A stretch of 34,082 bases of DNA from a plasmid. This document shows positions 18,110 to 18,821 of the stretch, piece after piece. Each line of letters opens with the position of its first letter. Position 1 is the first letter of the stretch. The position numbers and the translations under genes are program-made. The notes under the pieces were generated by a model. It saw nothing but the letters and a program-made list of their open reading frames with translations, had not been told where the DNA came from and made no database searches. Where the stretch lies: sequence record NZ_CP045730.1, one strand, 5' to 3'.

Positions 18110-18141
18110 CCAGTTTTTAAAGGTCATGCTATAATATAAAC

Positions 18142-18267
18142 AGAAAAAGGAAGCCCCGCCGAAAACAGGACTTCCCGTGCAAGCCGCTTCAAAGGCGGTG
18201 GCATTAGTTAACTAAACGATAATGTCGTCCCGTAACTCGCCAAAGTTATGATCGGGGCGGCTTTTTT
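18142..18267 (+). ncRNA. Candidate antisense/antitoxin sRNA of Fst-like type I TA locus 1
   Basis: Extended -10 element ATGCTATAAT at 18126-18135. Structured ~125-nt region ending in a hairpin plus T6 terminator. A paralogue at 23576-23693 shows compensatory stem changes. Its terminator overlaps the stop of the convergent toxin ORF. Confidence 0.5.
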
Positions 18268-18355
18268 ATTTGTGGTGTTTGTCGATATAGCTGAGTAGCG
18301 CGATTAAAAACGTGCCAAACAGCAACATCAACGAGAGTGTCTGGAAGACGCTCAT
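18266..18355 (-). CDS. Fst/Ldr-like type I toxin peptide (29 aa, single TM helix plus basic tail)
   Basis: Encodes MSVFQTLSLMLLFGTFLIALLSYIDKHHK. A GGAAGG ribosome-binding site is present. The gene converges on the sRNA and shares its terminator. A paralogue lies at 23683-23787. Confidence 0.5.
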   Translation of the reverse strand: MSVFQTLSLMLLFGTFLIALLSYIDKHHK

Positions 18356-18821
18356 TGACTGTGAAACCTTCCTGAAGATTATTCCATGTTCCCATGGGCC
18401 TCACCTCACAAGGGAAAAGACAGCCACCGCCCTTAAAACTTCTTGCTCAATCCATTATACAGGGAAATTAAAAATCAACCAAGAGCAATAAAACTGCTCT
18501 TGACAGCAAAGGAAAGCTACAACACTAGCAAGGTCAGCAAGCAAGGCTAATAATACTGCTGCAATGGGAAATGACAAGCGTCCAGTAGGGCGGTCCAAGA
18601 GCGGGCGCAAACCCTACCAGGCAGTACGATTATAAAAGTAAAGAAGGTCATAAAATCAGCTACTAGAGGGAAAACTGTGGTAAAAGACAAATAAGATGGT
18701 GAAATGATGACTATAAAGTCAAGTCAGATAAACAGGTGATTAAGCATACAAATTGCTTTTGACACTTTACTTACTTATAATAAGTACAATAACAAATGAC
18801 TAGTAAAAGGCGGGTAAAACA

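Follow-up and report, generated by a model that had tools for sequence, protein, structure and literature searches.

The locus around a 29-amino-acid (aa) peptide gene at 18266..18355, in a 34,082-nucleotide (nt) stretch of plasmid DNA (sequence record NZ_CP045730.1; the window, meaning the whole stretch), is very probably a plasmid-borne type I toxin-antitoxin module of the TxpA/BsrG/BsrE/BsrH-RatA group. A gene for a peptide with a single transmembrane (TM) helix faces a convergent, structured antisense small RNA (sRNA) of about 125 nt, which bears out the type I class proposed in an earlier sequence-only reading of this DNA. Sequence analysis gives the family of both parts, strong conservation, a predicted overlap across the full 3' untranslated region (UTR) of the toxin mRNA, and a covarying long-range helix that resembles helix P1 of bsrG mRNA. 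The module is genuine and intact but ordinary, as its family is well known and its elements are already classified by Pfam, Rfam and RefSeq. Its RNA architecture agrees with published models and is consistent with them rather than new. The sole mildly unusual trait is a conserved strong Shine-Dalgarno (SD) sequence with an AUG, forming a mini open reading frame (ORF) upstream of the toxin ORF. Below, this module is locus 1 and a paralogue on the same plasmid is locus 2. The features of locus 1, in window coordinates, are as follows.

18266..18355, minus strand: toxin ORF, 29 aa, MSVFQTLSLMLLFGTFLIALLSYIDKHHK; from the ORF list; single TM helix and basic tail.
18367-18373, minus strand: toxin SD, AGGAAGG, 11 nt before the ATG; read from the sequence and kept in locus-1-type relatives.
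18142..18267, plus strand: RatA-like antitoxin sRNA, about 126 nt, with putative ends; from Rfam RatA, folding and RNAalifold.
18148-18176, plus strand: 5' hairpin of the sRNA; from folding.
18183-18199, plus strand: hairpin 2 of the sRNA, carrying GGCGGUGGC at 18194-18202; from folding.
18224-18261, plus strand: terminator hairpin of the sRNA, followed by T6 at 18262-18267; overlaps the toxin stop codon (18266-18268).
18107-18135, plus strand: sRNA promoter, with -35 TAGCCA (18107-18112), a 17-nt spacer and extended -10 TGCTATAAT (18127-18135); from a promoter scan, 10/12 matches with TG extension.
18455-18483, minus strand: putative toxin promoter, with -35 TTGGTT (18478-18483), a 17-nt spacer and -10 TATAAT (18455-18460); start at about 18448.
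18139..18176, minus strand: intrinsic terminator of the toxin mRNA, a stem-loop (18176..18148) and U-run; from a terminator scan, 13 pairs and then TTTTCTGTTT.
18422..18446, minus strand: 5' arm of the P1-like helix, containing GGCGGUGGC (18423-18431); from minimum free energy (MFE) and centroid folds, duplex energy and covariation.
18179..18203, minus strand: 3' arm of the P1-like helix, within the toxin 3' UTR; sRNA hairpin 2 targets it as well.
18393..18407, minus strand: conserved strong SD GAGGUGA (18401-18407) and AUG (18393-18395), which open an upstream ORF out of frame with the toxin.

The family of the toxin follows from the peptide. It matches Pfam Hol_Tox (PF16935), the family of the TxpA/BsrG/BsrE/BsrH group of toxins, with 50.3 bits against a cut-off of 23.3 (E = 2.2e-13), and a Pfam scan up to E = 10 returned no Fst_toxin (PF13955) and no family besides Hol_Tox. 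The sequence-only reading had described a 29-aa ORF with a TM helix, a basic tail and a ribosome-binding site. All are present, though the SD is suboptimal because its 11-nt spacing to the ATG is long. That reading had also likened the locus to par (Fst) of pAD1. A module of this kind would combine an Fst toxin, an RNA II-like sRNA, a shared bidirectional terminator as the only overlap, and repeat pairing at the mRNA 5' region that blocks translation. In its favour, the toxin ORF and predicted sRNA converge, the peptide is small and hydrophobic, a 9-mer is repeated, and Lpt/Fst-like modules exist on Lacticaseibacillus plasmids (PMC5608710). The family match speaks against it, however, and the peptide has no proline and lacks the Pro-containing Fst/Lpt core (AIIAPLLVGVFLLL). 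The missing core also led us to reject an identity with Lpt, a published Lactobacillus toxin. Lpt of L. rhamnosus likewise has 29 aa, but is Fst-like with core AIIAPLLVGVFLLL, and its RNAs carry complementary repeats over the start codon.

A different alternative comes from NCBIfam, where the best matches of the peptide, both below threshold, are ComI (NF052249; 28.7 bits versus 55) and PepG1 (NF041589; 25.2 bits versus 70). The peptide could be a small membrane regulator like ComI, the competence inhibitor encoded on the B. subtilis plasmid pBS32; in that case the antisense RNA would tune its level, and addiction would not be the main role. Such a role would fit the weak toxicity of BsrE, the lack of toxicity of TxpA and of YhzE-2 (a candidate from a separate family) when expressed in E. 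coli, and the presence of two paralogues on one plasmid. Both scores are nevertheless far under the curated cut-offs, the element has spread widely on mobilizable plasmids, and the RNAs have the architecture of proven pairs: the antisense RNA overlaps at the 3' end, the mRNA is closed and a hairpin contains the start codon. We therefore regard a regulator as improbable. A PDB sequence search of solved structures with the peptide gave chance-level matches only.

Conservation points to selection on the toxin ORF of the module. The surrounding 800 bp have matches in 543 plasmid records, which come from Lactiplantibacillus, Lacticaseibacillus, Levilactobacillus, Pediococcus and others, and tblastn places the peptide on 516 plasmids (276 at an identity of at least 99%). 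In a scan of species-representative genomes we found 80 loci, with DNA 82-99% identical to the window; the identical 29-aa peptide is encoded by 57 of them. It occurs in Lactobacillaceae, Oenococcus, Tetragenococcus, a metagenome-assembled genome (MAG) of Lactococcus and even an actinobacterial (Phoenicibacter) MAG, while the peptide of Weissella loci differs by one residue. Variable sites number 6, 2 and 14 at codon positions 1, 2 and 3, respectively, so most are at the third position. Because the peptide stays identical at this level of DNA identity and variation is biased to the third position, the ORF is, as judged from sequence comparison, a gene under purifying selection. The sequence-only reading had named conservation in related plasmids as a test of its proposal, and the ORF is highly conserved there. 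Being identical across many genera, the peptide could also serve as a marker of plasmid exchange among Lactobacillales.

The same data bear on the idea that the locus is a decaying, non-functional remnant riding with the plasmid backbone. The surrounding region is a mosaic with insertion sequence (IS) elements, a split P-type ATPase gene and a possibly truncated ArdC-like gene, and the toxin promoter or the P1-like helix is no longer present in some relatives. Yet decay is hard to reconcile with one peptide across many genera and third-position bias, with promoters, both terminators and helix arms that are all intact in the window, and with RNA helices that keep compensatory changes. We consider a remnant very improbable.

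The antitoxin can be assigned independently of the toxin. On the plus strand, 18132-18223 match Rfam RatA (RF01776) with 55.4 bits against a gathering score of 49, a match placed on the strand opposite the toxin and 3' of its ORF. This family match is a further point against an Fst/par-type module with an RNA II-like sRNA. The sequence-only reading had expected automated gene callers to miss both elements, which is not the case. PGAP annotates the ORF as WP_021353390.1, "putative holin-like toxin", with a 90-nt coding sequence, a name already present on hundreds of lactobacillus plasmids, and Rfam RatA finds the sRNA above threshold. The structured region ending in a hairpin and T6 over the toxin stop codon is present as described, and the sRNA folds better than its shuffles (z = -2.6). 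RNAalifold with 17 relatives supports its 5' and terminator hairpins, and through changes on both sides 11 of 21 pairs are kept. A simple terminator scan did not call the terminator hairpin because its stem is bulged; RNAalifold recovers that hairpin with compensatory changes. The plus-strand promoter with an extended -10, also part of the earlier description, is likewise present, and its CATGCTATAAT is kept in the paralogous locus and most relatives.

The two transcripts are predicted to overlap far beyond their terminators. We placed the toxin promoter by conservation, with CTGTATAAT standing at the same position in the paralogue and most relatives, and the predicted toxin mRNA runs for about 310 nt on the minus strand, from ~18448 to ~18140. 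Its terminator mirrors the 5' hairpin of the sRNA and ends beside the predicted sRNA start. In relatives this hairpin is kept by compensatory changes and, in other lineages, by unrelated sequences. Each RNA is thus predicted to end at its own terminator within the transcription unit of the other. From the placement of these two separate terminators, the sRNA would be antisense to the entire toxin 3' UTR, from stop codon to toxin terminator, with an overlap of about 126 nt (18142-18267). The shared terminator of the sequence-only reading does not hold in the par sense because the toxin mRNA is predicted to terminate further on, at a site of its own. This distal terminator, and a covarying 3' arm that lies beyond the sRNA terminator, both count against an Fst/par-type module.

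The repeated 9-mer leads to the same conclusion. The sequence-only reading had pointed to the motif GGCGGTGGC in the sRNA and to its reverse complement upstream of the toxin ORF. Both sites are present, at 18194-18202 (plus strand) and 18423-18431, but the pairing that this implied does not follow. Since the two copies are transcribed from opposite strands, GGCGGUGGC is present identically in the sRNA and the toxin 5' UTR, and pairing between the copies is impossible; their common complement is GCCACCGCC in the toxin 3' UTR. The window's 34 kb hold one further exact copy of GGCGGTGGC, at 23863-23871 in the paralogous locus. With at most one mismatch there are 8 matches, compared with 1.8 expected, and none of 100 shuffles reaches 8. 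Pairing of the sRNA with the 5' region of the toxin mRNA was also no better than in controls (-48.2 versus a shuffle mean of -52.2, with 373 of 500 shuffles as good or better). Note that RNAduplex of the full sRNA against this region gives unrealistic long-loop duplexes, usable solely for this comparison with shuffles. Because the motif is identical in both RNAs and the pairing does not exceed that of shuffles, a par-style direct-repeat interaction at the translation start is not there, and we regard an Fst/par-type module as extremely improbable. The practical value of the present analysis lies in correct annotation, as an Fst-like label would steer experiments to the wrong RNA interaction.

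Copies of the 9-mer with one mismatch (GACGGTGGC) also lie outside both modules, at 5133, 20951 and 21491 on the plus strand. Two of them are 540 nt apart on the strand opposite a Cna_B-repeat adhesin gene, and for this reason they probably reflect DNA repeats of the adhesin gene, unrelated to the toxin-antitoxin loci.

What the shared 9-mer belongs to becomes apparent when the predicted toxin mRNA is folded. A helix of about 22 bp joins nt 2-26 to the 3' UTR segment just before the terminator. It is found in the MFE and centroid folds of both loci (z = -5.9 for locus 1 and -9.2 for locus 2, which has the same fold). The duplex of the two arms has an energy of -40.9 kcal/mol, compared with -18.0 +/- 3.5 for shuffled arms, and the 5' arm segment is the best partner of the 3' arm within 2.5 kb.

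This P1-like helix covaries among diverged relatives, which we drew from Leuconostoc, Latilactobacillus, Lacticaseibacillus and Enterococcus plasmids. Its outer part varies yet remains complementary, reading GCAAG/CUUGC in locus 1, GUAGAG/CUCUAC in locus 2, and GCAGA/UCUGC, UCGAUAG/CUAUUGA and UUGAUAG/CUAUCAA in relatives. Column-wise covariation in MAFFT alignments across the two sub-types is blurred by register shifts of one or two columns, and we therefore added a register-free test comparing the pairing energies of own and swapped arms. Across seven lineages, arms paired within their own locus sum to -251 kcal/mol, whereas re-paired arms average -174 and reach -206 at best (0/1854 reach -251). 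The helix is predicted in 50 of 54 unique mRNAs of relatives and is recovered by RNAalifold from 27 full-length mRNAs. At 16 consensus pairs, 92.6% of cells are paired, compared with 33-54% when partners are slid, and 38 cells are changed on both sides, compared with 16 +/- 4 in shuffles (0/500).

The P1-like helix matches helix P1 of bsrG mRNA. Probing of that mRNA revealed a long helix P1 between nt 1-35 at the 5' end and nt 232-262 at the 3' end, one nucleotide away from the terminator; SR4 binds the 3' arm of P1, frees nt 1-33 and lengthens the stem that holds the SD (PMC3834814). Our analysis extends this experimentally probed architecture, by covariation, to a very widespread plasmid branch.

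A mechanism can be proposed by analogy with these systems. Closed by the P1-like helix, the toxin mRNA would be compact, stable and poorly translated. The sRNA, made from a stronger promoter (with its extended -10), would invade the 3' arm; it carries the 5'-arm sequence, so that sRNA and 5' arm would pair with the same 3' UTR segment, and pairing with the 3' UTR would displace the 5' arm and grow into a long duplex. By analogy with RatA/txpA, SR5/bsrE and SR4/bsrG, RNase III would cut this duplex, leading to decay of the toxin mRNA; a refolding that hides the ribosome-binding site further may also occur. If the plasmid were lost, the antitoxin RNA would presumably be exhausted earlier than the toxin mRNA, the classical course of post-segregational killing. 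Toxin synthesis would follow and the membrane would be damaged, and the module would in this way stabilise the plasmid.

Several observations weigh against the assignment to the TxpA/Bsr-RatA group or against this mechanism. The locus-1 toxin mRNA falls below Rfam thresholds (38.9 bits versus 45 for rli28, RF01492; 10.2 versus 55 for BsrG, RF01412). Its promoter was not called by the promoter scan because the weak -35 matches at just 3/6 positions, and the ends of both RNAs are placed from consensus motifs. In a subgroup of relatives (four unique mRNAs, L006, L053, L062 and L068, with L022 and L042 having the same arms), the toxin ORF is intact and the P1-like helix disrupted, so the helix is not indispensable for keeping the ORF. 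Blocking the 3' UTR changes the predicted SD accessibility only modestly, from 0.44 to 0.29 (partition function), and a translational effect of the sRNA is suggested solely by analogy. Finally, some relatives such as BsrE are weak toxins.

Comparable systems have been described before. The 3'-overlap antitoxins of the TxpA/Bsr group promote RNase III decay, and txpA/RatA, bsrG/SR4 and bsrE/SR5 have 100-140 bp of complementarity (PMC6562991). According to a review, systems like bsrE/bsrH occur in Lactobacillus and Enterococcus. In L. casei, TxpA-family toxins were counted by Fozo et al., who also described E. faecalis EF3263, toxic in E. coli and provided with a ~110-nt RNA antisense to its 3' UTR (PMC2887945). 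Listeria plasmids have this convergent arrangement too, with rli28 and RatA around a BsrH-like ORF and high expression of both RNAs (PMC9484302). Our literature searches found no paper on the module in L. plantarum, and searches with the peptide sequence were also without result.

Among these systems, bsrE/SR5, bsrH/as-bsrH and bsrG/SR4 (B. subtilis P6, skin and SPbeta) are alike in their Hol_Tox single-TM peptide of about 30 aa and in a convergent sRNA complementary to more than 100 nt of the toxin 3' region, a feature predicted here from sequence. The likeness to bsrG/SR4 extends to a 5'-3' helix directly before the terminator, the 3' arm of which is invaded by the antitoxin in bsrG; the Rfam BsrG model does not match the locus-1 toxin mRNA (10 bits), however. 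Our module differs from all three in residing on mobilizable Lactobacillales plasmids and in an sRNA of about 126 nt rather than 163-200 nt. With txpA/RatA (skin element, RF01776) it shares the above-threshold RatA score, the Pfam family, the overlap at 3' ends and, by analogy, an expected RNase III-dependent decay of toxin mRNA. TxpA has 59 aa and RatA 222 nt, whereas the toxin here is nearer the BsrE/BsrH subgroup. The rli28 and RatA RNAs of L. monocytogenes plasmids (pLM80 and others) form the same convergent Rfam pair with a small BsrH-like ORF. Locus 2 and relatives from Enterococcus, Leuconostoc and Lacticaseibacillus score above the rli28 threshold, while the locus-1 toxin mRNA is a diverged branch and its 29-aa toxin starts with ATG rather than GTG or TTG. 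EF3263 with its sRNA is similar in the 3'-UTR antisense RNA of ~110 nt.

More distant systems share the general plan. Fst/RNA II (pAD1 par) and Lpt/RNA II are also convergent type I modules with a hydrophobic peptide of about 30 aa on plasmids of lactic acid bacteria, but here complementary repeats at the translation start are lacking as well as the Fst domain and Pro core, and the overlap covers the whole 3' UTR rather than a shared terminator only. As in hok/Sok and aapA/IsoA, pairing between its 5' and 3' parts closes the full-length toxin mRNA and should make it more stable. In those systems the SD is itself sequestered by this pairing, the 5' region is the antisense target, and the mRNA becomes active through 3' trimming. 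Here the SD follows about 50 nt downstream of the 5' arm (18422-18446), and the antisense target of the sRNA is the 3' UTR with the 3' arm.

The mildly unusual trait of the locus is the upstream SD and AUG. A near-perfect SD and an AUG at optimal spacing (RGGUGRUGC-NN-AUG) stand 54-63 nt from the aligned mRNA start in 9 of 10 tabulated plasmid lineages; the exception, L085, was missed by the regular expression and carries the close variant AGGUGGUGGUGCUUAUG. The AUG opens a "start-stop" or short out-of-frame ORF, and the upstream ORF has 2, 5, 37, 48 or 49 codons in any frame relative to the toxin. The element is shared by L081-L088 and L089. It also occurs in a SPbeta-like Bacillus relative. 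The peptide of this relative, MSTFQALMLMLAFGSFIIALLTYINKK, is also of the Hol_Tox family and 67% identical to the locus-1 toxin, its mRNA scores 212 bits on Rfam BsrG, and in it the SD and AUG element is the start of the toxin itself. Here, by contrast, the element lies 40 nt upstream of a toxin ORF that has its own weaker SD. It is possible, if unlikely, that the Lactobacillales/Listeria (rli28-type) branch keeps an ancestral BsrE-type start 39-51 nt upstream, which may load ribosomes, either to stabilise the mRNA in the manner of a STAB-SD or as a mok-like leader with control over toxin translation. In the literature searched, no such upstream control layer was found described for TxpA/BsrG/BsrE systems. 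The upstream ORF of 49-52 codons is not, in our analysis, a second coding gene. Its length ranges between 34 and 62 aa, its start is frameshifted in one relative, versions of 2-5 codons occur in other frames in other lineages, and substitutions follow the toxin frame, so that the long version of locus 1 gives no hint of coding selection.

Upstream starts also affect the annotated lengths of some homologues. RefSeq gives 72 aa for L084 (L. sakei), 40 aa for L085 (E. faecium) and 48 aa for L087 (E. faecalis), each with upstream in-frame starts. The conserved core has its own SD, which suggests that the real products are about 29-34 aa, or that there are two isoforms as for S. aureus SprG1.

Some relatives are recombinant. 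L008 (on the Oenococcus alcoholitolerans chromosome), L006, L022, L042, L053, L062 and L068 join a toxin and 5' UTR of the locus-1 type to a 3' UTR and sRNA segment of the locus-2 type, and the outer part of the long-range helix is lost in them. Six of these, all but L008, have diverged further and have a decayed 5' arm with four or five substitutions, mostly G-to-A (GGGCGGTGGC to TGGCAATGAT or TGGCAATGTT), and an intact ORF.

The window carries two modules of the RatA family, which probably aid plasmid maintenance in food and gut lactobacilli. The second comprises the following features.

23557..23899: paralogous locus 2, with its sRNA on the plus strand and its toxin on the minus strand; Rfam RatA match at 23565-23655, with a promoter just upstream.
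23683-23787, minus strand: locus-2 toxin, 34 aa, MSVADALQLMLAFGTFIVALIALIVELIKSQQKK, GTG start; Hol_Tox E = 1e-17; -10 hexamer at 23894-23899.

Locus 2 scores higher than locus 1 on Rfam, with 89.7 bits for RatA and, for the toxin mRNA, 51 bits on rli28 (threshold 45). The toxin ORF lies inside the rli28 match, and its GTG start is buried in a hairpin. The first ~55 nt of both sRNAs and their promoters are nearly identical between the loci, and because of this, cross-talk between the two is conceivable.

Upstream of the toxin promoter of locus 1, a terminator-like hairpin on the minus strand (18478-18504) overlaps the promoter's -35, and a promoter-like site, TTGTCA-16-TATTAT (18550-18577, minus strand), lies ~50 nt upstream of the hairpin. 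In most relatives the aligned block stops short of the hairpin's distal arm, and many of them part from the window within it or just below it. The hairpin may shield the toxin against read-through; alternatively, hairpin and promoter-like site may delimit a very short transcript.

The plasmid also carries a RepA_N replication initiator, a MobA/MobL relaxase, IS elements, a resolvase and an LPXTG adhesin. A P-type (E1-E2) ATPase at 13822-16118 (plus strand) is split into two abutting ORFs of 600 aa and 164 aa; the division of its haloacid-dehalogenase domain between the two suggests a frameshift or pseudogene. The ORF at 17351-18109 (plus strand) ends inside the -35 of the sRNA promoter and has only a weak DUF6782 match. 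Its counterpart in some related plasmids is annotated "ArdC-like ssDNA-binding domain-containing protein", and the ORF may be a truncated C-terminal remnant.

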